Shown: one piece after another, positions 1-57,716 of the stretch
Position numbering within the stretch: the stretch's first letter is position 1
Layout of the letters: the number at the start of each line of letters is the position of its first letter
Source: Patescibacteria group bacterium
GTDB lineage: Bacteria; Patescibacteriota; Minisyncoccia; Minisyncoccales; PEYH01
Assembly (NCBI GenBank): GCA_018900835.1
Contig: JAHIFQ010000004.1
Span: forward strand, 21,141 to 85,140
Direction: 5' to 3'
DNA length: 64,000 bases
Position numbers and translations under genes: made by a program
The notes under the pieces: model-generated
Database searches by the model: none
Seen by the model: the letters and a program-made list of their open reading frames with translations, nothing else
What the model was told of the DNA's origin: nothing

Positions 1-38
1 TTTTTAGTTTTTAATTTTACATTTTACATTTGCGAAGC

Positions 39-455
39 ATGGAGTATCCCTTACCACAATTTTTATCAATAAAACCAAAGGTTGCCGGGCCGTTTAATCT
101 GGCGCAATTACTTTGGATTGTTGGCGGAGCATTAGTATCAATAATTTTCTATTTCACTGCTCCTCTTATGACTTTTGTTTTAATCGGCATTCCGATTATG
201 ATTGTTGCTTTTATTTTGGCTTTTGGCAAAAGAAAGGGCTTCCCAATTCCAACAATAATAGTCCGTTCTTTTTCGTTCATTTTTGCCAGCAAAAGATATC
301 TTTGGAAAAAAATTGACACTCCAGCGATTATGCTTCCAAAAGCAACCAAGGCAAAACCCGTAGAACCAAAAGACGACAAAGCAATTAGTTTAAAAATTTC
401 CGGGCAGAGCCGTTTAAAAGAAATCGGACGATTAATTGAAATCCATTCCAAGTAA
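39..455 (+). CDS. small two-helix membrane protein, PrgI/VirB3-like T4SS component (putative)
   Basis: ORF 30..455 starts at TTG; the first ATG at 39 gives MEYPLPQFLSIKPKVAGPFNLAQLLWIVGGALV.., two hydrophobic helices and a basic tail. It lies directly upstream of the VirB4-type ORFs. Family call is from memory, not searched. Confidence 0.45.
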   Translation: MEYPLPQFLSIKPKVAGPFNLAQLLWIVGGALVSIIFYFTAPLMTFVLIGIPIMIVAFILAFGKRKGFPIPTIIVRSFSFIFASKRYLWKKIDTPAIMLPKATKAKPVEPKDDKAISLKISGQSRLKEIGRLIEIHSK

Positions 456-467
456 ATTTCCTATATT

Positions 468-1106
468 ATGAATCTATCATCACAACAATTCCTGCCATTG
501 GAACAGATAAAAGAGGGCATTATGATATTGAAAGACCATAGCTTAAGGGGCGTAATGATGGCATCCTCTTTAAACTTTGCTCTTAAAGCAACCGAAGAAC
601 AAGAAGCAATTATCTATCAATTCCAAACATTTTTAAATGCTTTGGATTTTTCCTGCCAAATTTTTATTGCTTCAAGAAAAGTGAACATCACCGGCTATCT
701 GGAAAAACTGAAAGAAGTTGAAGAAAAACATGAAAATGAATTAATGGCAACACAGACAAGGGAATACCGAAAATTTATTGAAAAAATAGTGGCAGGTGGC
801 GCTATTATGAATAAAAATTTCTATATAATCGTGCCATTTTATCTTTCAGAAATGTATGGAAGCGCTACCAAGGGCGGACTGATATCTTTAAAAGCAATCC
901 CAACATTAACCGAAGAAATGTTCCAAAGAGCAAAGTCCCAACTTTACCAAAGAATGGAATTCTTGTCTTTGGGATTGAGAAGGTGCGGGGTTTGGAGCGT
1001 TGCATTACAAAGCGAAGAGCTGATAGAGCTTTTCTGGAGCATGTCTCATCCAAAAGAATCGTCTATCGGTTATTATCCAGAAATCCCGCCCGAATTAATA
1101 CAATAG
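468..1106 (+). CDS. hypothetical protein resembling the N-terminal domain of Gram-positive VirB4/TcpF-type ATPases
   Basis: 212-aa ORF ending 12 nt before the ATPase. The pattern LPLEQIKEGIMILKDHSLRGVMMASSLNFALKATEEQEAIIYQFQTFLNALDFSCQIFI is typical of VirB4-family N-termini. No NTP-binding motif. Confidence 0.35.
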   Translation: MNLSSQQFLPLEQIKEGIMILKDHSLRGVMMASSLNFALKATEEQEAIIYQFQTFLNALDFSCQIFIASRKVNITGYLEKLKEVEEKHENELMATQTREYRKFIEKIVAGGAIMNKNFYIIVPFYLSEMYGSATKGGLISLKAIPTLTEEMFQRAKSQLYQRMEFLSLGLRRCGVWSVALQSEELIELFWSMSHPKESSIGYYPEIPPELIQ

Positions 1107-1118
1107 CGAATAAATAAA

Positions 1119-4100
1119 ATGAAACTTTCCTTTTTAGATGGATTATTAGGAAAAAAGACAGAATATGAGGCTGGTGCAGAACCGCAAGCAATGAACTTGC
1201 TTGATTTTATAGCTCCTCCAGCGATTACAATCGGGTCTGACTATTTCCAGATAGGCGAAAAATTCGCTAAATCATACTTTATTTTCTCTTACCCGAGATA
1301 TTTGAGCACTGGGTGGTTGGCGCCAATTATAAACTTGGACATTCCATTGGACATTTCTATTTTCTTTCATCCGATTGATACTGGGCTTATTCTGAAAAAA
1401 TTAAGTAAAAAGGTTACTGAAGTTCAGTCGGAAATAATGGAAAAGGAAGAAAAGGGTTTAATAAGGGACCCTATCCTTGAGACCGCTTACAAAGACATTG
1501 AGGTATTAAGAGACCGGCTCCAAACAGCGCAGGAAAGAATGTTCAGGGTTGGAATGTATCTGACCATATATGCTGATGACAAAAAGGAGTTGGAAAAAAT
1601 AGAGGGCACTGTTCGCTCAATCCTTGAATCAAAATTGGTTTATGTAAAACCAGCCCTCTACCAACAGGATAAGGCAATGATTTCAGCGTATCCCGCTGGT
1701 ATAGACCGACTTCAAGTGCATACATCTATCAATACTAGTCCTCTCTCAACAATTTTCCCATTTGTGTCTTTTGATTTGAGTTCAAACGAAGGAATCCTTT
1801 ACGGGATAAACCAGCACAACAGCTCACTAGTGTTGTTTGACAGGTTTAGCTTGGAAAATGCAAACTCAGTCGTTTTCGGTAAGAGTGGCGGAGGCAAAAG
1901 CATTTTATCATCTGAACCAGTTCTGATAAGCGAGAACGGACAAACCAAGATTGAGAACATCGGCAAAGTTGTAGAAAGAGCAATAGAAAAACACGGGTGC
2001 CATAAAATTGACGAGGAATTAGAGGGAGCAATAAATCCATATATCAAAGTTTGGAGTTTTGATAAAAATCTTAAAGGCAGTTGGTCAACGGTGACTGTTG
2101 CTGCAAGAAAAAAAGCTCCTGAAATATTTTATAAATTCAGAACCCGAAGCGGAAGAGAGGTGAGCACAACAGGAGACCACAATATGTTAATCCTTAAAAA
2201 TGGACAAATAACCGCAGAAAAAAGCTCTGAAATTAATGAAGGAGAATTTATCCCGTTGTCCAGAAGGATTTCTGAAAACTCCTCTCCAGATAAATTCATA
2301 AACTTGCTTGAATTACTAAAAAATTCCCACTTGGTTTATGTTTTCAACGCTGAAAAAATCATCAAAAAATATTATCATCAGATAAAAAATCTTGATAGTG
2401 GTTCCTCTTTAAAAAAATATCTCTATAAATACAAAGATGGTAGAAGGATTCCTATTAAATACTTCCTTGAAATTATTGATTCTTTAAAAATTTCAGAAGC
2501 CGAGCTTAATGATTTAAAAATTGTTTCCAAAAATGGAGATATTGCCAATGGCTTAAATATAATCTTGCCTATTTCAAATAATCTGTTAAAAATAATCGGA
2601 TTTATAGCATCAGAAGGAACAGTTGGCGAAAACTTTATAAATATCAGTAACCAAGACGAAGAATTCATCAAAGAGTGTATGGACTCTTTCAAGAATATTG
2701 GGGTTCCGTGCTATCAAGCAGACAAAGCTATTATTTGCGCAAGCCGTATTTTCACAGAAATCATCAAGGCATTAGGCGGAAAACAGAAGTCCGGAGATAA
2801 GACGGTTTTGCCATTTATATTTAATGCTGAAAAAGAAAAAATTGCGCAATTCCTTTCCGCTTATTTTGAGGGAGACGGCGGGGTAGAACATGATAAAATA
2901 TGCGCCACAACCAAATCAAAACAGCTATCTTCTGAAATTTCTTATCTGCTTTACTATTTTGGAATCATTGCCAGAATCCAAAAGAAAATTAAATGCGCCA
3001 CCAATACAGAAGAAAAAAGAAAACAAACATATTGGCAAATTTCTGTATCAGGGAAGAATGATTTAGAAAAGTTTGCCCAAGAAATTGGATTCATTTCTCA
3101 CAGGAAAATAAACAAACTAAATAGCATTATTAAAGAAAATGGGAATACAAATGTTGATATAATCCCGGGCTTAGCTCCGTTGTTTGAAGAAATCTACAAC
3201 ACCTGTCCTCCGCTCCTTATGGGCATGCAAACGGTCTCTGCTCTAAAGCGCGGGATATATAATCCTTCACCAGATAATTTAAAAAACATAATAGAAAAAA
3301 TAGAAAAACGGATTACTTATTTTAAAGATAGAGGAGAACAAATAAAAGTCCTGTCAGGATTGCCAGAAATTCAGGAATTAATTGAATACGGAGAAAACAT
3401 AGACAAAGAAACAGAAGACAATCTTGATTATAATTATAGTCCACAAGTCATAATGACCGAGCAAGCAAAGCAAACCGACCGACTTATTTGGCAGGAATAC
3501 CAAGAAATTTTAAGAAATGGTATTCCAAAAATTGAAAATATTATCAAACGCCTAAAAAATCTAGCAAACTCTGATTTATTTTTTGACGAAATCGTAAATA
3601 TTGAAAAAATAGCCAACAAAGATGAACAATATGTTTATGATTTAACAGTGGACAACGAAGTATTTCTCTGCGGAAACGGTGGAATGTTTGTTCACAATTC
3701 GTACGCAATTAAGTTGGAGATTTTAAGGTCTTTGATGCTTGGAATTGAATCAATTATTATTGACCCTGAAAACGAATATAGATTCCTTTCTGACGCAGTG
3801 GGCGGGAAGTTCTATAATATTTCTTTGGCATCAGAAAGCCATATAAACCCTTTTGACCTGCCAGAACCAGTTGATGATGAAGAGCCAAAAGATGTTTTGC
3901 GCTCCAACATTATCAACTTGGTTGGGCTTATGAGAATAATGCTTGGCGGGCTCACGCCTGAAGAGGACTCTGTTATTGACCAAGCTATTAACGAAACATA
4001 TGCTGCCCGCGACATCACCGCAGACACAGACCCTGGTCTATGGAAAGAAAGGGTGCCATTGATGTCTGATTTAGAATCAGTGCTGGAAACAATGGAAGGC

Positions 4101-4718
4101 GCTGAATCGCTGGTTAAACGATTAAGAAAATTCACCAAAGGCGTTTACGCGGGATTCTTTAATTATCCAACAAATGTAGTAATGGATAATGCTTTGGTTG
4201 TTTTTGGCATTAAAAATCTTGAAACAGAATTAAGGCCATTGGCAATGTTTATTGTTATGCGCTACATTTGGAACGCCATTAAAGGTGATTTAAAAAAGAG
4301 AATCTTGGTGATTGACGAAGCGTGGTGGCTGATGCAAACAGAAGACAGCGCTTCTTTCCTTTATGGAATTGTAAAAAGAGGAAGAAAATATTGGCTTGGC
4401 ACAACCACAATCACACAGGATGTGAACGATTTTATGAAATCAGACTATGGCCAGCCCATAATCACAAATTCATCTTTGCAACTCTTGATGAAACAATCTC
4501 CAGCCACTATTCAGGTTGTAAAAGAGACCTTCAATCTTACTGACCAAGAAAAATACCTGCTTTTGGAAGCGCCTATTGGCGAAGGAATATTTTTTGCCGG
4601 AGAAAAACATGTTTCTATCAGGATTGTTGCTTCCTACACAGAGGACCAAATCATAACAACCTCGCCTGAAGAAATGTCTAAAATAAAAAAGCTTAAAAAG
4701 ATAAAAGAAAATGCCTGA
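1119..4718 (+). CDS. virB4: VirB4/TraC/TrbE-family T4SS ATPase containing an intein
   Basis: 1199-aa ORF. The extein (aa 1-260 plus 861-1199) has the N-domain LDFIAPPAITIG..YFIFSYPRYLSTGWL, a Walker A GKSGGGK/S interrupted by the insert, Walker B RILVIDEAWWLM, and GTTTITQDVNDF. Confidence 0.85.
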   Translation: MKLSFLDGLLGKKTEYEAGAEPQAMNLLDFIAPPAITIGSDYFQIGEKFAKSYFIFSYPRYLSTGWLAPIINLDIPLDISIFFHPIDTGLILKKLSKKVTEVQSEIMEKEEKGLIRDPILETAYKDIEVLRDRLQTAQERMFRVGMYLTIYADDKKELEKIEGTVRSILESKLVYVKPALYQQDKAMISAYPAGIDRLQVHTSINTSPLSTIFPFVSFDLSSNEGILYGINQHNSSLVLFDRFSLENANSVVFGKSGGGKSILSSEPVLISENGQTKIENIGKVVERAIEKHGCHKIDEELEGAINPYIKVWSFDKNLKGSWSTVTVAARKKAPEIFYKFRTRSGREVSTTGDHNMLILKNGQITAEKSSEINEGEFIPLSRRISENSSPDKFINLLELLKNSHLVYVFNAEKIIKKYYHQIKNLDSGSSLKKYLYKYKDGRRIPIKYFLEIIDSLKISEAELNDLKIVSKNGDIANGLNIILPISNNLLKIIGFIASEGTVGENFINISNQDEEFIKECMDSFKNIGVPCYQADKAIICASRIFTEIIKALGGKQKSGDKTVLPFIFNAEKEKIAQFLSAYFEGDGGVEHDKICATTKSKQLSSEISYLLYYFGIIARIQKKIKCATNTEEKRKQTYWQISVSGKNDLEKFAQEIGFISHRKINKLNSIIKENGNTNVDIIPGLAPLFEEIYNTCPPLLMGMQTVSALKRGIYNPSPDNLKNIIEKIEKRITYFKDRGEQIKVLSGLPEIQELIEYGENIDKETEDNLDYNYSPQVIMTEQAKQTDRLIWQEYQEILRNGIPKIENIIKRLKNLANSDLFFDEIVNIEKIANKDEQYVYDLTVDNEVFLCGNGGMFVHNSYAIKLEILRSLMLGIESIIIDPENEYRFLSDAVGGKFYNISLASESHINPFDLPEPVDDEEPKDVLRSNIINLVGLMRIMLGGLTPEEDSVIDQAINETYAARDITADTDPGLWKERVPLMSDLESVLETMEGAESLVKRLRKFTKGVYAGFFNYPTNVVMDNALVVFGIKNLETELRPLAMFIVMRYIWNAIKGDLKKRILVIDEAWWLMQTEDSASFLYGIVKRGRKYWLGTTTITQDVNDFMKSDYGQPIITNSSLQLLMKQSPATIQVVKETFNLTDQEKYLLLEAPIGEGIFFAGEKHVSIRIVASYTEDQIITTSPEEMSKIKKLKKIKENA
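1899..3698 (+). mobile_element. 600-aa intein with LAGLIDADG homing-endonuclease domain inside the VirB4-like P-loop
   Basis: In-frame 1800-nt insert between K260 and S861. Block A SILSSEPVLISENG; block B TTGDHNMLIL; LAGLIDADG motifs LLKIIGFIASEGTVG and IAQFLSAYFEGDGGV; block F YVYDLTVDNEVFLCGNG; block G MFVHN followed by +1 Ser. Removal restores GKSGGGKSYAIKLE. Confidence 0.8.
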
Positions 4719-5013
4719 AACATTGTCAGCAAGAGGAATTATGAGATTGATAATCGCTATCATTCTTGATATCTTTGGTTTCCTTTGTTCAGCCATTTCC
4801 CTTCTCGGGCTACCAGGAATGTTTATAGGCGGAGCGCTTTCGCTTATTCCAGACGGCTTAGGATTCATTTTTATAGGCGGAATGAACAGAAAAAAGGATA
4901 GGGAATTCTACCTTTCTTTCGTGGCTGAAATTATTCCTGGATTGGGAGCTCTTCCTTTTTGGACAGCATATGTTCTGCTTGGGAAAGGATATACTCCATC
5001 TGACCCTAAATAA
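4711..5013 (+). CDS. small Gly-rich integral membrane protein (unknown family)
   Basis: 100-aa ORF overlapping the ATPase stop by 8 nt. Hydrophobic segments include LGLPGMFIGGALSLIPDGLGFIFIGG. Confidence 0.4.
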   Translation: MPETLSARGIMRLIIAIILDIFGFLCSAISLLGLPGMFIGGALSLIPDGLGFIFIGGMNRKKDREFYLSFVAEIIPGLGALPFWTAYVLLGKGYTPSDPK

Positions 5014-5017
5014 AAAA

Positions 5018-7582
5018 ATGACGAATAACACGAAAAAATTTATTCTGTTTATGGGGTCAATCTTATTGGCTGTTTTTTTGTTAACAATAGTCCATTTTTC
5101 AAGAGTAAGCGCTGCTGATTTGGAAAACATATACCCAGATGTTCCTGGAGCAATAACGCCAACAACCACTGAAACGCCTCTGCCTGTATTATTAAAATAT
5201 ATTTATAATCTTTCTATTATCTTGGCCGGCTTTATAGCATTTGTAGTCATGGTTTGGGGAGGTGTGAAATATATTTTAGCTGGACCAAGGCCAGGAAAAT
5301 TGGCAGACGCCAAGGAACAAATCACGCTCGGATTAGTAGGCATGATGCTGATTTTCGCTTCATATATGATAGTAAACACCATAAATCCTGACTTTACTAA
5401 ATTAATAACAATTCTGCCCATTACTTTTACCGATACCTTTATCCCATCAAGCGATAATCCAAGTTCAATGGATGTCGGACTTTACGAGATTCCTATCGGC
5501 TCAATCATCACCTCTGAATTCGGAGCTTCCTCTTTTTTGGCAACCACTAGTCCAGATATTGACTACGCTAATACCGAATGGCCGCCTACAATCACAAGCA
5601 CTAGCACCTATGATACTGATTTTCAGGGCGCTCTTTTCGGAGCGCGCCTAAGGCGAATACACGAAGTTGCCAGCACCACTGTGCCAGTGGCAAAAAAATT
5701 ACACGATTTGAGCAACGGGCTCCATGATTTAATAAATAAATGCACTTGCATGTTCGGATGTCATGGGAATATCCTATTAATATGCGCCGTATCTACAGAT
5801 TGCGGATGCGACACAGGATATTTGTGCAGTGATGACACAAAAGACAAAATGGAAAAAAGAATAGGGGAAATCGAATCCTTAAAAGACGCTTTTAAGGCCT
5901 TCTTAAATCCCAATTCCCTTGTAGAGGATTATTATAACAATAATCAATCAGATATTGACGGCTTGGATGATGATGAAATAAAAGACCTTATCCAGATGAT
6001 GATAGAGGTAGAGAATAAGGGCGGTTATAGTCCGAAAAACGACCCGCATGAAAGAGATATTGGGAGAAATCTGCTTGAAATGACTGCTTTTATAAATGAA
6101 ATGAATAAGATGAAAAGAATGCTCAACCCCTATGACCAGGATGTGGGCTATTTAAGCTTGCTTACATTCGCCGAAGCCACCACGCTGGAAGCCAATATGG
6201 ATGTAAGCTCCACTATTTATAATTATTTCGCCGCCCTTCCAGCTGGGCTGGAAAAAATTGACGAAAAAAACGACCCTGCCACTTTTTATTCAGCAGCCAC
6301 TCTTCCTTTTCCATATGGGATGCCAGACGATAGACCGTATAATCAAGATGCTCCGGAACCCGATTTTCTGCCTTATTATCCAGGAGAAAGAAAAATGTCC
6401 TATCAAAAAAACATTGCTTTCGCAGCCGTACCATTCGTTCCCCCAAATGTGCAATTTGATTTTGACACCCCTCCAAGCACGGGCGGAACCTGTAATTATA
6501 TATTGGAAATCCCTATCGGCAGAGCATTAGATGAGGCAATCAATCTCGCCCAAGCAATCAATAAAGAATTATTTAATATATTCGTCAAAGGACATATAGA
6601 AATAATCGGCGCCAATATGCTGATAAAAGCAGCAGAAAAATTCATTGACCTGAAATGCGTCGATGCCTGCATCAAGCCAACATGTGTCGGCGAACCACCT
6701 CTCGCATTATGCGTTCCACCATTCCTCTGTATGCCGACTCTCGAAACAATATTCTTGAATGCTCAAAGTGATATTGCCATATTCCTTATTGAATTAACAA
6801 CTATCCCGGGTATGAACATTGCCATAGATGATATTGAAACTTCATTCAAAAAATTGGACTCCCAGGAACCGATTTTGATAGACCGCGTGTGTAAAGACGA
6901 AAAAGGAAATTGTCGAAAAAGGAACGGAACAATTAATAATAGTAAAGTAGAAGAAAGGGAATATACTTTAAAAGAAAAATTAATGGAGGTTCAACTTCTG
7001 CTTAATAGGTCTAGGGAGCTCGTCGGCCAGGACAAAGAAAAAAGCGTTTACGAAATCTTGTTAGAGGATTACATTGCCCTCGGTTTTGGCAAATATTATG
7101 AAGATTTGTTAAAATATATAAGGAGGATTGACGCTATTGAAAGAACCGACCTTCAGGACTGCCACATAATATCCGGAACCATCAAGAAAATAGAGGGAGA
7201 GAATTACAGCACATCATTGATGAATTGCCGAGATGCCAAGCTCCTGGACTTGATAGATTTCTATAATGAAGACATTTGCAGTCCTAATCCTTATCTTGAC
7301 GCCAATTATTATTTAAAACCCGAAGCCCGCAAGTTAAGGCCTATCAGTTGTTATTGCTATGACGAGGATGCTGACAAAAAATACTATAATAAAAAGGATT
7401 TCCCTGAACTCTACCAAAGTATAAGCATTATTGTTCCCAGTTTTATGGCTGATATAGAAGATTTAGACACTGATGCCCTGCATGATTTGGCGCAACAATG
7501 GCAAAATGCCCGTATAGACCTCAATCATTTCTCCGGATTCGGCAATAATTATTTTTGCTGTATTAAAAATTATGAAGAATAA
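5018..7582 (+). CDS. large secreted Cys-rich protein with N-terminal VirB2/TrbC-like T4SS pilin module
   Basis: ATG at 5018, in frame with ORF 4970..7582, gives the signal/anchor MTNNTKKFILFMGSILLAVFLLTIVHFSRVSA. A two-helix pilin-like module follows (LLKYIYNLSIILAGFIAFVVMVWGGVKYILAGPRPGKLADAKEQITLGLVGMMLIFASYMIVNTINP). The remaining ~700 aa are Cys-rich and belong to no family I recognise. Confidence 0.6.
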   Translation: MTNNTKKFILFMGSILLAVFLLTIVHFSRVSAADLENIYPDVPGAITPTTTETPLPVLLKYIYNLSIILAGFIAFVVMVWGGVKYILAGPRPGKLADAKEQITLGLVGMMLIFASYMIVNTINPDFTKLITILPITFTDTFIPSSDNPSSMDVGLYEIPIGSIITSEFGASSFLATTSPDIDYANTEWPPTITSTSTYDTDFQGALFGARLRRIHEVASTTVPVAKKLHDLSNGLHDLINKCTCMFGCHGNILLICAVSTDCGCDTGYLCSDDTKDKMEKRIGEIESLKDAFKAFLNPNSLVEDYYNNNQSDIDGLDDDEIKDLIQMMIEVENKGGYSPKNDPHERDIGRNLLEMTAFINEMNKMKRMLNPYDQDVGYLSLLTFAEATTLEANMDVSSTIYNYFAALPAGLEKIDEKNDPATFYSAATLPFPYGMPDDRPYNQDAPEPDFLPYYPGERKMSYQKNIAFAAVPFVPPNVQFDFDTPPSTGGTCNYILEIPIGRALDEAINLAQAINKELFNIFVKGHIEIIGANMLIKAAEKFIDLKCVDACIKPTCVGEPPLALCVPPFLCMPTLETIFLNAQSDIAIFLIELTTIPGMNIAIDDIETSFKKLDSQEPILIDRVCKDEKGNCRKRNGTINNSKVEEREYTLKEKLMEVQLLLNRSRELVGQDKEKSVYEILLEDYIALGFGKYYEDLLKYIRRIDAIERTDLQDCHIISGTIKKIEGENYSTSLMNCRDAKLLDLIDFYNEDICSPNPYLDANYYLKPEARKLRPISCYCYDEDADKKYYNKKDFPELYQSISIIVPSFMADIEDLDTDALHDLAQQWQNARIDLNHFSGFGNNYFCCIKNYEE

Positions 7583-9116
7583 AGAGATGAAAAAAATCAT
7601 ATTAATAATAAGTGTTTTGGTTGTCCTCTCTTGCGCAGGACTAATATACGCCCTTGAAGTAGAATATCCAACTGTAGGCGGTATGCAGGGCCCACAGGAT
7701 ACTGGAGTCAAATTAACAACCTATATCCGTTATATCTATAACTTTGCCATTATAAGCGGAGGACTGATTGCTTTATTGGCTTTAATTTACGGCGGATTCA
7801 GATTTTTGACTTCAGCTGGCAATCCAAGCGCTATCACAGACGCAAGAGAACAAATCTTAGCAGGACTTTTGGGATTGGTTGTTATTTTGGGTTCATATAT
7901 AATACTAAACGAACTGAATCCTGACTTAGTGTCATTGAGAATCCCGGGGATTGACGCAAACAGAAAGGGAATAATTTTATATAGTCAGGCCGGTTGCGGT
8001 GGATTGAGCGATGATGACGCTTCTATGCCCGAGGTTGCTGATATCCCTGACGGCCTGCTTTACAAAGCAATGAACAGCAGCGGATCAATAACAGATCAAG
8101 ACGGAAACAGTTTTCTTCCTGTGTCTCTGTTTTCTTTTCAGGATTCAAAAGATTTAATAATACAATTTTATTCCAATGACAAATGCGAAGGAAACACGGT
8201 TCCAGCGCCACAACTTAATTCTAACCAATGTTTAGATATCAGCGCTTCTAATCTTAAGTGCATAAAGTTCATTTGGTACAAGCCCGGGGTCTGGGTCTTC
8301 AACCAATTAGAAAATGGAGCTAATGTGCCTGACCCCGGTGACCTGCCTCTTGGATGGGAAGAAGGAAAAGAATATATAGTATTCCAGAGCAATCAAGAAT
8401 CTTTACCAAACAACTTCCACGACCAAATTGTGGCTCTGGTAATCGTGCCCAGTAAAGAGTCCGAGGAAGGATTGGGGAAAAACTACGGCGTAATCGCCCA
8501 CAATATCCCCGGACCCATGCTCAAAGAAAAAGGTTGGGCCCATATTTATCTGCCGGGAAACGGTTCTGCTTCGGGTTGCCGATTATCTGGAGAGATAACT
8601 AAGTGCGGACCATTTGAAAATAATTCTTCTGATATTTCTTCGTTAACAATATTCAATATGCCCAAAGAAGGAACAGCCACTAAGGCAATAAAGGTTTGCC
8701 GAAATGACAGATGCGAGCCGCAGAGAGTCGGAGATGACTTCTTTGATGTTTATAAAGAATATTTTCCGGGAAGCGGACTTCAAGAAAGAACCAGTGTTTT
8801 CGGAGGAGCGGTGTCTCCCTATAACCTCGGAAGCGGAATAGTGTATGGTAAAAATCTTAATGGTGAAAATTGGGATACTGGCAATCCTATTGTTCTTGGC
8901 AGGAATCAGGCAGACGGGGTTTCAGCTATTGAAATAGATGAAGGAGCCCGTTATCTGACGCTCCTTTACGACGAATATCTTGATTTTTCCAATATTAATA
9001 CTAACACTTCGGCTGACGCAGCCATTATCAATATTTCTATGCCATCTTTGAGAACAATTCAAATGGATGGTAGAGTTGGGACAATTATAGTTATCCGAGT
9101 GGGGACAGAAGATTAA
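7572..9116 (+). CDS. secreted protein with N-terminal VirB2/TrbC-like T4SS pilin module (paralogous N-terminus to the preceding gene)
   Basis: Signal peptide MKKIILIISVLVVLSCAGLIYA, then YIRYIYNFAIISGGLIALLALIYGGFRFLTSAGNPSAITDAREQILAGLLGLVVILGSYIILNELNP. The C-terminal ~380 aa are unrelated to the neighbour. The start overlaps the upstream stop by 11 nt. Confidence 0.6.
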   Translation: MKNKEMKKIILIISVLVVLSCAGLIYALEVEYPTVGGMQGPQDTGVKLTTYIRYIYNFAIISGGLIALLALIYGGFRFLTSAGNPSAITDAREQILAGLLGLVVILGSYIILNELNPDLVSLRIPGIDANRKGIILYSQAGCGGLSDDDASMPEVADIPDGLLYKAMNSSGSITDQDGNSFLPVSLFSFQDSKDLIIQFYSNDKCEGNTVPAPQLNSNQCLDISASNLKCIKFIWYKPGVWVFNQLENGANVPDPGDLPLGWEEGKEYIVFQSNQESLPNNFHDQIVALVIVPSKESEEGLGKNYGVIAHNIPGPMLKEKGWAHIYLPGNGSASGCRLSGEITKCGPFENNSSDISSLTIFNMPKEGTATKAIKVCRNDRCEPQRVGDDFFDVYKEYFPGSGLQERTSVFGGAVSPYNLGSGIVYGKNLNGENWDTGNPIVLGRNQADGVSAIEIDEGARYLTLLYDEYLDFSNINTNTSADAAIINISMPSLRTIQMDGRVGTIIVIRVGTED

Positions 9117-9575
9117 TTAAACTGGTTTGATGATGATTTTACGGTAAGGGTCTGCGCCAATGCTTTCGGTTTTGACATCGCTCCTATCTTTGAGTTCTAT
9201 ATGAACAATTCTTCTTTCATAAGCTGACATTGGTTTCAGCTCTTTTTCTTGTCTGGAAAGAGCGACATCATCAGCATAACTTTTAGCAGTATCTTTTAAA
9301 TAATCAAGTTTCTTTTTCTTGTAATCATTGATATCCAAATCAATATAAAACTCTTCTTTAAATTTTTTTCTTAAAAACTTGTTCAACAGGTTCTGGATTT
9401 CAAAAAGAGTCCTGCCATTTTCGCCAATCAGGATTTGCGGTTCTTCCATTTGAATCAAAACCGGCATTGATGAGTCAGTCATTTCCTCAACCTCTACTTT
9501 TGTTTCAAGGGTGGTTTTTTTAAAAAATTCCTGAACTGCTTTTCTCACTTTTTGGCTTAGTTTCCTTTCAAACAT
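9117..9575 (-). CDS. jag: Jag/KhpB-type RNA-binding protein (KH + R3H)
   Basis: KH-like LIGENGRTLFEIQNLL and R3H MSAYERRIVHIELKDRSDVKTESIGADPYRKIIIKP. Canonical position downstream of yidC. Confidence 0.8.
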   Translation of the reverse strand: MFERKLSQKVRKAVQEFFKKTTLETKVEVEEMTDSSMPVLIQMEEPQILIGENGRTLFEIQNLLNKFLRKKFKEEFYIDLDINDYKKKKLDYLKDTAKSYADDVALSRQEKELKPMSAYERRIVHIELKDRSDVKTESIGADPYRKIIIKPV

Positions 9576-9576
9576 A

Positions 9577-10305
9577 TTATTTTTTCGTTAAATAATATTT
9601 TTTTCTTATGAAAAACTGCTGGCCTGCCATAAATATCCCTGCCACGAGTAAATAAAGCCCGAGCGCAGATGGCAAACGAAAAAGAATAACAGTAATCAGG
9701 ATAGGGAACAGGAATAACATTTGTTTCTGGAACATATCTGCGAAACCCGGTTTTTTGGAGGACTGCTCTTCTGATTTGTCTTTTTTAGGCATAGCAAATT
9801 TGCTTTGGAGAAAAAAGGTTATCCCTGCTATCACAGCCAAAATCGGGGACGGCTCGTTCAAATTAATTCCGAGAAACATAGGATTAATCACTTCTGGCCT
9901 CTGGACAAAACTATAAAGATAAACAAAACTTTCTTCCTGTATGCCCTGCCAAAACATCCTGTAAAGAATAAATAAAATCGGCAACTGAACAAGGGTAACA
10001 AAAAACGCTGAAAAAGGATTAATTTTTTCGGTCTTATAAAGCCCCATCATTGCTTTTGCCTGCTCCTCTTTATTGTTTTTGTATTTTGCCTGAATCTCTT
10101 TCAGTTTTGGCTGTAATGCCTGCATTGCCAACTGGGACTTGCTTGCCTTATCTTGCAAAGGATATAAAATAATCCTGATAAGCAGGGTTAAGGTGATAAT
10201 TGCCACTCCAAGATTATGGCCAGGCAAATAATAACAAAGCAAAATCAAGAGATTAAACAAGGGCTGCCACAATATTACATGAAAAAAATTGGTAAAAGCA
10301 TTCAT
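9577..10305 (-). CDS. yidC: membrane protein insertase YidC (short form)
   Basis: LWQPLFNLLILL..GVAIITLTLLIRIILYPL, multi-TM; rnpA-yidC-jag synteny. Confidence 0.85.
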   Translation of the reverse strand: MNAFTNFFHVILWQPLFNLLILLCYYLPGHNLGVAIITLTLLIRIILYPLQDKASKSQLAMQALQPKLKEIQAKYKNNKEEQAKAMMGLYKTEKINPFSAFFVTLVQLPILFILYRMFWQGIQEESFVYLYSFVQRPEVINPMFLGINLNEPSPILAVIAGITFFLQSKFAMPKKDKSEEQSSKKPGFADMFQKQMLFLFPILITVILFRLPSALGLYLLVAGIFMAGQQFFIRKKYYLTKK

Positions 10306-10804: not shown

Positions 10805-11011
10805 AAATTAGTTTCATTAAAATTAATTTGTATTTTGTTTAACCAGTATAATCATTAAAGACACATAAGTCAACCGATTTCTTCCACCCATAATCCCCAT
10901 TTTATCCCCATCTTTTCAACACCATGCTTTGATTTATGCGGTAAACCATTGATTTGCCTTTTAAAAAAATATAGCATAGTATGAGAATTGAGATTAACCC
11001 TCCCAAACATT

Positions 11012-12367
11012 ATGAACAAAGAAGAGCTCTGGCAAGCTATCCTGTCCCAAATCCAGTTCAATATATCCCAGGCGAATTTTAGCACCTGGTTTAAGAACAC
11101 ATACATTCTTTCAAACGATAACGGGACAATAATAATAGCTGTGCCAAACAATTTTTCAAAAGAATGGTTGGAAAGAAAATATAACAAGCTTATTTTAAAT
11201 GGGTTAGAGGAATTAAATGAAAGAGTTAAGGTAATAGAATATAGGGTAGTGAATGTCCCTGCCCCCCAGATGCCAAAAAAATCTGTGAAAGCAGAAATAG
11301 CTGATATAAACCAGTTAGAATTGGAGGAACTGGCGCTTGATAAATATACTAATCTTAATCCTAGATACACTTTTGATAATTTTGTAGTCGGCCCATTTAA
11401 TGAATTAGCGCATGCCGCTGGGTGGGCAGTGAGCCAAAAGCCGGGATTGGTATATAATCCATTTTTTGTTTATGGCGGAGTAGGACTTGGTAAGACCCAT
11501 CTGCTTCAAGCAATAGGGAATAAGGTCTATGGACAGTCCGCCAAAAAGAAAATTAAATATGTTTCTTCTGAAAGATTCATATCCGGCATTATTAATTCTA
11601 TAAGAAATCAAACTATTGATGAATTTAAAAACACTTACCGTGATTTTGATATGCTGATAATTGATGATATCCAATTTCTGGCAGGCAAAGAAAAGACCCA
11701 AGAAGAATTCTTTCATCTTTTCAATATCCTATATGAATCCAATAAACAAATCATCATCTCATCCGACAGGCCACCTAAAGCGATTTCAGCGCTGGAAGAG
11801 CGATTGCGTTCGAGATTTGAAGGCGGGATGATAACAGATATAGGAACTCCTGATTTTGAAAGCAGAATCGCGATTTTAAAACAGAAAATTCAAGAAAAAA
11901 AGGCAGGTATAAGCGGAGAGGTTTTAGAGTATATCGCCTCAAACATACAAAAGAATGTAAGGGAACTTGAGGGCGCCTTGAAATCCTTAGCTGCATGGAA
12001 ACAGCTCCACAACCAAGACATTGACCTTGATTTGGCAAAAAAGGTTTTGAAAAGAACTATAAACCCGCAACCCAAAGGACTTAATTTTCAGAAAATAATC
12101 AACACAGTGGCGGAGTTCTATAATATGAAAGATAAGGACTTGTATGTTAGCTCAAGAAAAAAAGAAATCGTTAGACCACGACAGATAGCTATGTATTTTT
12201 TGAGGGAAGAATTGAAGAGTTCTTTTCCGTTTATTGGTAAAAAATTCGGGGGCAAGGACCACACCACAGCCATTTATGCCTGTGAAAAAATTTCAAAAGA
12301 AATAATTGAAAATGAACAATTCGCAGAAGAAATAATTCTTATCAAGGAAAAGATTTACTCTTATTAG
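11012..12367 (+). CDS. dnaA: chromosomal replication initiator DnaA
   Basis: ATG at 11012 (MNKEELWQAILSQI) within ORF 10988..12367. AAA+ motifs GGVGLGKTHLL and LIIDDIQFL. C-terminal DNA-binding domain RPRQIAMYFLRE..KDHTTAIYA. Confidence 0.95.
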   Translation: MNKEELWQAILSQIQFNISQANFSTWFKNTYILSNDNGTIIIAVPNNFSKEWLERKYNKLILNGLEELNERVKVIEYRVVNVPAPQMPKKSVKAEIADINQLELEELALDKYTNLNPRYTFDNFVVGPFNELAHAAGWAVSQKPGLVYNPFFVYGGVGLGKTHLLQAIGNKVYGQSAKKKIKYVSSERFISGIINSIRNQTIDEFKNTYRDFDMLIIDDIQFLAGKEKTQEEFFHLFNILYESNKQIIISSDRPPKAISALEERLRSRFEGGMITDIGTPDFESRIAILKQKIQEKKAGISGEVLEYIASNIQKNVRELEGALKSLAAWKQLHNQDIDLDLAKKVLKRTINPQPKGLNFQKIINTVAEFYNMKDKDLYVSSRKKEIVRPRQIAMYFLREELKSSFPFIGKKFGGKDHTTAIYACEKISKEIIENEQFAEEIILIKEKIYSY

Positions 12368-39150: not shown

Positions 39151-39222
39151 GTCCCTGTGGTTCAATGGATAAAACACCTCCCTCCGGAGGAGGAAATGGC
39201 TGTTCGAATCAGCCCAGGGACA
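39151..39222 (+). tRNA. tRNA-Arg (anticodon CCG)
   Basis: Cloverleaf: acceptor GTCCCTG/CAGGGAC, anticodon arm CCTCC-CTCCGGA-GGAGG, T arm GGCTG-TTCGAAT-CAGCC, discriminator A. CCA is not encoded. Confidence 0.85.
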
Positions 39223-39253
39223 CAAGATTCGAACCCTACCCCCGGAGCAATAT

Positions 39254-57316: not shown

Positions 57317-57339
57317 ACTTTTATAATTACTTATTTTAG

Positions 57340-57716
57340 TGGAGATGGTGGGATTCGAACCCACGTATAGGAAGGCGTTTGAATCGTTTCTACAAGCTTA
57401 CCTTGATTGATATTGTCGGCCAGATGCCTTGAATCAAGGGAAAAAGCTTCTGGCTTAGGCCTGTTTTTGGCAATCCTTGTCGGCCAATTAAGGATTGCTT
57501 ATCTCGATAAATTACACCCGTATTGCCTATCGAGAGTCAGCAAGACAGATGGGCGTTGATTATTGCTAATCAAGCGCCGACCAAAGCGTTATGCGTAAGC
57601 ATAAGCTGGTCTTTGAAATAAGTTGGCACTTATTTGATTCTTGGAAGTTTAACCAGGTTCCAAGAGCTGGACTTGCGCAATTCATCAGCTATTTCCCATC
57701 GATGCCTTTCACCCCC
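57340..57716 (-). ncRNA. ssrA: tmRNA (SsrA)
   Basis: 5' GGGGGUGAAAGGCAUCGAUGGGA; 3' GUGGG-UUCGAAU-CCCAC-CAUCUCC-A. The acceptor stem has a G3.U70 pair. Tag frame GCC AAC UUA UUU CAA AGA CCA GCU UAU GCU UAC GCA UAA (57627..57589) encodes ANLFQRPAYAYA. Adjacent to smpB. Confidence 0.8.

Follow-up and report, generated by a model that had tools for sequence, protein, structure and literature searches.

A predicted bifunctional LAGLIDADG intein in the P-loop of a chromosomal VirB4-like secretion ATPase of Patescibacteria

The stretch of DNA analysed here (the window) comprises 64,000 nucleotides of the bacterial chromosome of a Patescibacteria group bacterium (contig JAHIFQ010000004.1, positions 21,141 to 85,140). 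Near its start lies a gene for a VirB4-like ATPase of a type IV secretion system (T4SS), whose Walker A motif, the P-loop, is split by an in-frame insert of 1800 nucleotides. An earlier reading by a model that saw only the letters and their open reading frames (ORFs), here called the original prediction, had placed an intein of 600 amino acids (aa) with a LAGLIDADG endonuclease at 1899-3698, and had quoted its blocks A, B, F and G with the adjoining Ser+1 and two LAGLIDADG motifs. The placement is exact, the 1199-aa frame matches Pfam and NCBIfam profiles, and all quoted blocks lie where they had been reported. The anatomy of the gene and the precise in-frame position of the insert are established as follows.

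1119-4718, plus strand: precursor gene, an unbroken frame of 1199 aa plus stop, encoding the VirB4-like T4SS ATPase split by the intein
1119-1898, plus strand: N-extein, aa 1-260, ending in FGKSGGGK (Walker A through Lys)
1899-3698, plus strand: class-1 intein of 600 aa (precursor residues 261-860) that contains a LAGLIDADG homing endonuclease
1899-2273, plus strand: Hint-N, the N-half of the splicing domain, intein aa 1-125 (TIGR01445, alignment to PI-PkoII and TFIIB mini-inteins, beta-strand content in the structural model)
1899-1940, plus strand: block A with Ser1 (codon 1899-1901)
2166-2189, plus strand: block B, TTGDHNML (T91-G-D-H94)
2274-2573, plus strand: extra domain between Hint-N and endonuclease, intein aa 126-225 (AlphaFold2 predicted local distance difference test score, pLDDT, of about 75-93; family alignment)
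2574-3143, plus strand: LAGLIDADG endonuclease core, intein aa 226-415 (Pfam LAGLIDADG_3, structural model, Foldseek)
2592-2627, plus strand: LAGLIDADG motif 1, IIGFIASEGTVG (IIGFIASE239G, acidic residue Glu239)
2850-2885, plus strand: LAGLIDADG motif 2, FLSAYFEGDGGV (FLSAYFEGD326G, acidic residue Asp326)
3144-3566, plus strand: C-terminal helical accessory domain, intein aa 416-556 (weak match to the helix-turn-helix (HTH) family HTH_3, E=0.026)
3567-3698, plus strand: Hint-C, intein aa 557-600 (TIGR01443)
3633-3680, plus strand: block F, VYDLTVDNEVFLCGNG, with Asp581
3684-3701, plus strand: block G with Ser+1 (His599-Asn600 at 3693-3698)
3699-4718, plus strand: C-extein, aa 861-1199, whose first residue is the +1 nucleophile Ser (3699-3701) and which holds Walker B, ILVIDEAW

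Translation of 1899-3698 begins with SILSSEPVLISENG (SILSSEPVL...) and ends with GGMFVHN, preceded by FGKSGGGK and followed by SYAIKLE. The +1 Ser (Ser861, 3699-3701) doubles as the serine of the Walker A motif GKSGGGK-S. The guanine-plus-cytosine content of the intein (33.7%) is lower than that of both exteins (39.5%) and of the whole window (36.9%), which fits weaker constraint or a foreign origin of the insert. Minus-strand ORFs of 61-89 aa also occur within the intein and were treated as chance ORFs.

The profile matches of the precursor protein leave the original prediction of an intein with a LAGLIDADG endonuclease well founded. Pfam Intein_splicing (E=1.6e-17) and LAGLIDADG_3 (E=7e-20, in two stretches) both score above their gathering thresholds, and the NCBIfam models for the two ends of the splicing region, TIGR01445 (N-terminal) and TIGR01443 (C-terminal), likewise score above cutoff. 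The strongest side matches of the whole protein in the NCBIfam search were intein-containing archaeal proteins. Further, a hidden Markov model (HMM) of the intein family built here matched the insert with E=2.4e-243. Applied to all six-frame ORFs of at least 60 aa in the window, the same model detected no second intein, the insert at 1899-3698 being its only match.

Removal of residues 261-860 yields a 599-aa protein in which the Walker A motif GKSGGGKS is restored. This spliced extein matches NCBIfam NF045971 (VirB4-like conjugal transfer ATPase, CD1110 family) in one stretch over residues 21-566 (371.2 bits, cutoff 325), whereas the unspliced precursor matches it in two. As had been predicted for the joined exteins, alignment with the ATPase domain of TpsVirB4 (4ag5) is contiguous and gap-free over the P-loop (vvfGKSGGGKSyaikleilr against tilAKPGAGKSFTAKMLLLR), and Walker B ILVIDEAW is aligned with VLVVDEAW of 4ag5. 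Intein-free alleles, which the original prediction had proposed to look for, exist in P0001 (94% identity) and P0002 (93%, Candidatus Parcubacteria), both of exactly 599 aa. The joined extein DNA and the P0001 gene align over 1800 nucleotides of each with 83% identity and zero gaps. In the empty-allele locus L001 the site reads GGAAAATCCGGCGGAGGAAAG/TCGTACGCAATCAAGTTAGAG (centre GGCGGAGGAAAG/TCGTACGCAATC; here and below a slash marks the insertion point). The coexistence of empty and occupied alleles is thereby established: at about 94% extein identity, P0001 and P0002 stand beside the occupied window and locus L007, and such sporadic occupancy is a footprint of mobility. The insert is carried by one (P0039) of the 120 best VirB4 homologs. 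The reading that the original prediction had named as fatal to an intein, namely that homologs share the 600 aa as a conserved non-splicing domain, is ruled out, as 119 of the 120 closest homologs lack the insert, and so do the 94%-identical alleles.

The fold of the intein was predicted with AlphaFold2 from a 15-sequence family alignment, and the model is confident (mean pLDDT 88.1, predicted template modelling score 0.85). In a Foldseek search of the Protein Data Bank (PDB), its top match was PI-PkoII (2cw7; E=4e-29, template modelling (TM) score 0.72 on the target), followed by TliVMA, PI-PfuI, PhoVMA and PI-SceI. The mini-inteins 5o9i, 6rpp and 4e2t match the splicing domain with a root-mean-square deviation of about 2 Å, which supports the Hint fold, and the endonuclease core matches I-DmoI, I-Tsp061I and PI-PfuI. 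The order of secondary-structure elements in the model over aa 227-396, two helix-strand-strand-helix-strand-strand-helix repeats, is that of the pseudo-dimeric LAGLIDADG fold. Similarly, the best sequence matches among solved structures were PI-PkoII (2cw7), TFIIB mini-inteins, VMA inteins and CDC21 inteins (phmmer E=3.9e-15 for the best).

Relatives of the intein were sought in 185,579 genomes, one per species, with a block G peptide pattern, and 220 were confirmed; insertion sites and residue conservation were counted on the best 80 of these, the residue alignment having 80 members (79 loci and the window). Seventy of the 80 best relatives lie in VirB4-like genes at the same GK/S site, mostly in species-representative genomes of many Patescibacteria lineages, and three of the VirB4-hosted copies (at least 70) are in DPANN-type archaeal genomes. 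Another five are in UvrB (L073, L075, L076, L078, L079). UvrB-borne relatives found by protein search have clear HTH_3/HTH_31 domains where the helical accessory domain sits. The extra domain at intein aa 126-225 occurs in many members of the family, not in all, and may serve in DNA recognition or as a linker. A protein search with the intein alone returned 41 proteins, about 30 of them Patescibacteria VirB4 (fragments or full length) with the intein at the same GK/S; in the remaining ones it interrupts the corresponding point of the P-loop in DUF87/HerA-like ATPases, UvrB (with +1 Thr), RecA, a T2SS-E-type ATPase and DnaB. Some family members had already been labelled 'intein/homing endonuclease' by database annotators.

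The catalytic residues of the family are conserved. The splicing residues T91, H94, D581, H599 and N600 are each found in 80 of 80 members. Position 1 is Ser in 72, Cys in six and Thr in two of the 80 (Ser or Cys in 78), and the +1 residue is Ser in 74 and Thr in five of 79. The LAGLIDADG acidic residues are nearly as constant (E239 in 75 and D326 in 78 of 80), and K301 and K403 are present in all 80. The original prediction had held the Ser1/Ser+1 chemistry and the large size to be unusual. Neither holds against the family, in which Ser1 and Ser+1 are the norm and the median length is 653 aa (range 391-675), above the 600 aa of the window copy; the PI-PkoII chain is also Ser-initial.

Two kinds of relatives stand apart by site or host. 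In L069 (Candidatus Gottesmanbacteria JAUXTO010000022.1, plus-strand ORF at about 2501-4309), an intein of the same family sits five residues upstream, after the first GK of Walker A (VVFGK/SVASWEPV ... MFVHN/SGGGKSYFVK), which looks like ectopic homing into the duplicated GK/S within one P-loop. In the archaeal loci L045, L047, L057 and L086 (Micrarchaeota, Nanoarchaeota and an unclassified archaeon), relatives occupy GK/S or GK/T of VirB4/HerA-like ATPases. Compared with Patescibacteria copies, L047 has a higher identity in the intein (0.38-0.46) than in the C-extein (0.32-0.36), a sign that the intein may have passed between Patescibacteria and DPANN-type archaea.

The nearest relative of the window copy is L007, from a Patescibacteria metagenome-assembled genome (MAG), with exteins 94% identical and an intein of 664 aa that is 82% identical over aligned positions. 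The ratio of nonsynonymous to synonymous substitution rates (dN/dS; Nei-Gojobori method, window against L007) is 0.02-0.04 in the exteins, 0.057 in Hint-N and 0.051 in the LAGLIDADG core, values that are rough because dS is about 1, near saturation. Purifying selection is established for the gene, and the low core value implies that the endonuclease core was under such selection for most of the divergence. The suggestion in the original prediction that the T4SS-like ATPase is under strong selection fits the extein values and the published essentiality of the T4SS in an epibiont of the Saccharimonadia (Quinonero-Coronel et al., 2025; PMC12102498).

These data also bear on the idea that the insert is a permanent non-splicing domain, that the gene is a dead pseudogene, or that the locus is an assembly chimera. 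The precursor is identical to NCBI MBU3964189.1 (assembly GCA_018898995.1), which is annotated merely as 'hypothetical protein [Patescibacteria group bacterium]', and hardly anything beyond this bare label speaks for such an origin. An ATPase with 600 aa lodged permanently in GK/S would lose nucleotide binding, but the exteins show a dN/dS of 0.02-0.04, the reading frame is intact and the splicing residues are invariant throughout the alignment. A chimera is contradicted by the occurrence of the identical protein on five contigs in independent assemblies (NCBI GCA_018898995.1, Logan SRR9644739) and by the recurrence of the architecture in at least 70 species. We regard this explanation as having next to no chance of being right, and as effectively refuted. 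As judged from its sequence, the 1800-base insert is almost certainly a genuine intein, without whose splicing the host ATPase could not function. With little less confidence, we read it as a bifunctional class-1 intein at GKSGGGK/S of a chromosomal, dnaA-proximal VirB4-like T4SS ATPase, predicted both to splice and to cleave DNA.

Several observations weigh against the bifunctional reading, chiefly against its endonuclease part. Against L007, the window intein is short by a net 64 residues; measured on the family HMM, the gap covers about 80 positions (502-583) and lies in the helical accessory domain. The missing segment is present in relatives of 661-670 aa, and the gap recurs in the family alignment; the window copy thus lacks about 64-80 residues of a helical accessory domain that are found in 39 of 79 relatives. 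What remains at the deletion (window 3402-3455, intein aa 502-519) is modelled with pLDDT below 50, and dN/dS in the helical domain around it is relaxed (0.25), a value subject to the same near-saturation of dS. The helical accessory domain is eroding in the window lineage, and its partial loss may have left the endonuclease with a weaker hold on DNA. In addition, strong incongruence between exteins and inteins was sought as a mark of recent transfer, and only the archaeal L047 deviates; within Patescibacteria the identities of the two co-vary (r=0.71), which indicates that inheritance there was mostly vertical or among close relatives. Much of the family history looks vertical, and not like frequent recent homing.

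The same evidence, from the deletion and its relaxed surroundings to the co-varying identities, also speaks for an account in which the intein splices and its endonuclease is dead or dying, so that it persists as a fixed vertical passenger late in the homing cycle, kept since imprecise loss would destroy the P-loop. Other members of the family are clearly degraded: P0039 has an intein of 391 aa and has lost LAGLIDADG-1, and in P0127 AKS replaces AEG and position 1 is Thr. On the other hand, E239, D326, K301 and K403 are all intact in the window copy, and dN/dS of its LAGLIDADG core is as low as that of the Hint domain. Members of 520-580 aa without the helical domain retain the catalytic residues, so the helical domain may be dispensable. 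We therefore hold a dead endonuclease to be a tentative alternative, doubtful but well worth keeping in view, and slightly favour an endonuclease that is still active in the window copy, as predicted from its residues; this estimate is kept low because part of the helical accessory domain is lost. Sizes fall from about 665 aa through 600 aa (window) to 391 aa (P0039). This decay series, taken with empty alleles whose exteins are 94% identical, would correspond to the pattern of gain, fixation, decay and loss expected for homing elements.

Returning to a bifunctional intein, the established chemistry of class-1 inteins can be applied to the residues present here. Translation would produce a 1199-aa precursor that is unable to bind ATP, in which the Hint domain would fold first. 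Ser1 would then undergo an N-O acyl shift, helped by Thr91 and His94 of block B, and Ser+1 would attack the resulting ester to give a branched intermediate. Cyclisation of Asn600, helped by His599 and Asp581, would release the intein, and an O-N shift would restore a normal peptide bond. The predicted products are a VirB4 of 599 aa, whose P-loop again reads GKSGGGKS, and a free 600-aa endonuclease. In homing, the double-motif LAGLIDADG endonuclease would cut an intein-less allele at the P-loop-coding DNA, and the intein would be copied into the break during repair with the occupied allele as template. The +1 nucleophile is at once the serine of Walker A, which explains why the host cannot shift this site and why the element is secure in it.

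A P-loop position guarantees an inactive precursor, and this raises the question of whether the intein now serves the cell as a post-translational switch, with conditional splicing holding the essential T4SS ATPase inactive until a signal such as host contact. Conditional splicing of native inteins has been discussed (Novikova et al., 2016; PMC4760082), and the family persists over many Patescibacteria lineages. Against such a role, alleles 94% identical work without the intein, occupancy is sporadic (one of the 120 closest homologs), Ser1/Ser+1 provides no redox handle and the sequence indicates no sensor. Selfish persistence accounts fully for the pattern, and we consider a switch highly improbable. 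Stated more broadly, as a retained gate on the essential Patescibacteria T4SS in which the rate or condition of splicing times secretion or uptake activity, for example upon host contact, the idea fares hardly better and is very unlikely; if true, it would explain the persistence of the family and the invariance of its splicing residues over many Patescibacteria classes and epibiont-like DPANN archaea.

Inteins at P-loops are a classic kind. Like the window intein, DnaB-b, MCM-a and RFC-a lie in Walker A, with a +1 Ser/Thr that is the Walker A Ser/Thr (Novikova et al., 2016; PMC4760082), whereas their hosts are replication or repair proteins and the host in the window is a T4SS assembly ATPase. 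The original prediction had regarded a secretion ATPase as an unusual host. It is not unprecedented, as Table 3 of Novikova et al. (2016) contains five VirB4 (COG3451) inteins, from Firmicutes/Proteobacteria, and 21 VirB11 inteins from archaea. These VirB4 inteins share the host family of the window intein and come from other phyla, the comparison being by host protein. The closest matches in sequence and fold are PI-PkoII (Thermococcus kodakarensis DNA polymerase intein 2, 2cw7) and PI-PfuI (1dq3). In both, as in the window intein, the Hint domain is accompanied by a LAGLIDADG endonuclease with two motifs and by further modules for DNA binding, and the 2cw7 chain has the same ends as the window intein (SIL... 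and ...HN). They differ in being archaeal and hyperthermophilic, in having hosts other than VirB4 and in sharing only about 17% of residues, and the window intein has a different, partly deleted C-terminal helical (HTH-like) accessory domain. PI-SceI of yeast VMA1, the textbook bifunctional intein and likewise lodged in an ATPase, has a region for DNA recognition beside its LAGLIDADG endonuclease and is matched with a Foldseek E of about 1e-8, but it has Cys1/Cys+1, a eukaryotic host and another insertion site, and it superposes much more weakly (TM score about 0.3-0.4). The window intein is a clean, typical example of a known selfish element with no new mechanism, and it leaves the understanding of inteins unchanged.

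The genes around the ATPase place it in a T4SS locus next to replication genes, as listed below.

30-455, plus strand: PrgI/VirB3-like membrane protein (Pfam PrgI)
468-1106, plus strand: TraC-like protein, 212 aa (PF26593 TraC-like on syntenic orthologs)
4711-9116, plus strand: downstream T4SS partners, a 100-aa membrane protein followed by two large T4SS_pilin-domain proteins
4970-7582, plus strand: large protein of 870 aa with an N-terminal VirB2-like T4SS_pilin domain
7572-9116, plus strand: large protein of 514 aa with an N-terminal VirB2-like T4SS_pilin domain
9117-10305, minus strand: jag/yidC
10988-12367: dnaA
12629-13762: dnaN

The reading frames of the two T4SS_pilin-domain proteins overlap at 7572-7582, and Pfam gives no match at E<=0.01 for the long C-terminal part of either. 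Gene order is identical in the window, the empty-allele locus L001 and the mini-intein locus L004. The T4SS cluster adjoins jag/yidC, dnaA and dnaN, which places it at the presumed origin of replication, a position also reported for Paceibacteria-type genomes. The neighbourhood (VirB3/PrgI-like, TraC/TrsD-like and VirB2-like pilin genes, chromosomal and near dnaA) agrees with the published description, and the host locus is the T4SS already known to lie near the origin of Patescibacteria chromosomes (Quinonero-Coronel et al., 2025; PMC12102498). That study found VirB4 in 2,417 of 3,035 assemblies, as a monophyletic clade within MPF-FATA, and cites a transposon screen in which T4SS genes were essential for epibiotic growth of Ca. 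Southlakia epibionticum (Saccharimonadia). Elsewhere in the window, a transfer-messenger RNA (tmRNA) gene (57337-57716, minus strand, tag peptide ANLFQRPAYAYA) and a tRNA-Arg(CCG) gene (39151-39223, plus strand) are the only structured RNAs at Rfam gathering thresholds.

Our search of the literature on inteins in Patescibacteria, the Candidate Phyla Radiation and VirB4 found no description of this intein family, and the word 'intein' has zero occurrences in the study of the Patescibacteria T4SS (PMC12102498). The family of VirB4 inteins in Patescibacteria appears to be populous and undescribed in the searchable literature. For annotation, this matters in that intein-bearing VirB4 alleles can distort surveys of VirB4 that are based on length or alignment. 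A mesophilic, cysteine-independent Ser1/Ser+1 intein, which is predicted to splice, could also interest protein engineers. For the biology of the group, the intein family occupies the hallmark ATPase of the Patescibacteria T4SS, a machine reported to be essential for epibiotic growth. With relatives at GK/S or GK/T of UvrB and of archaeal HerA/VirB4-like ATPases, it represents one lineage exploiting the conserved DNA of P-loops over different hosts and domains of life.

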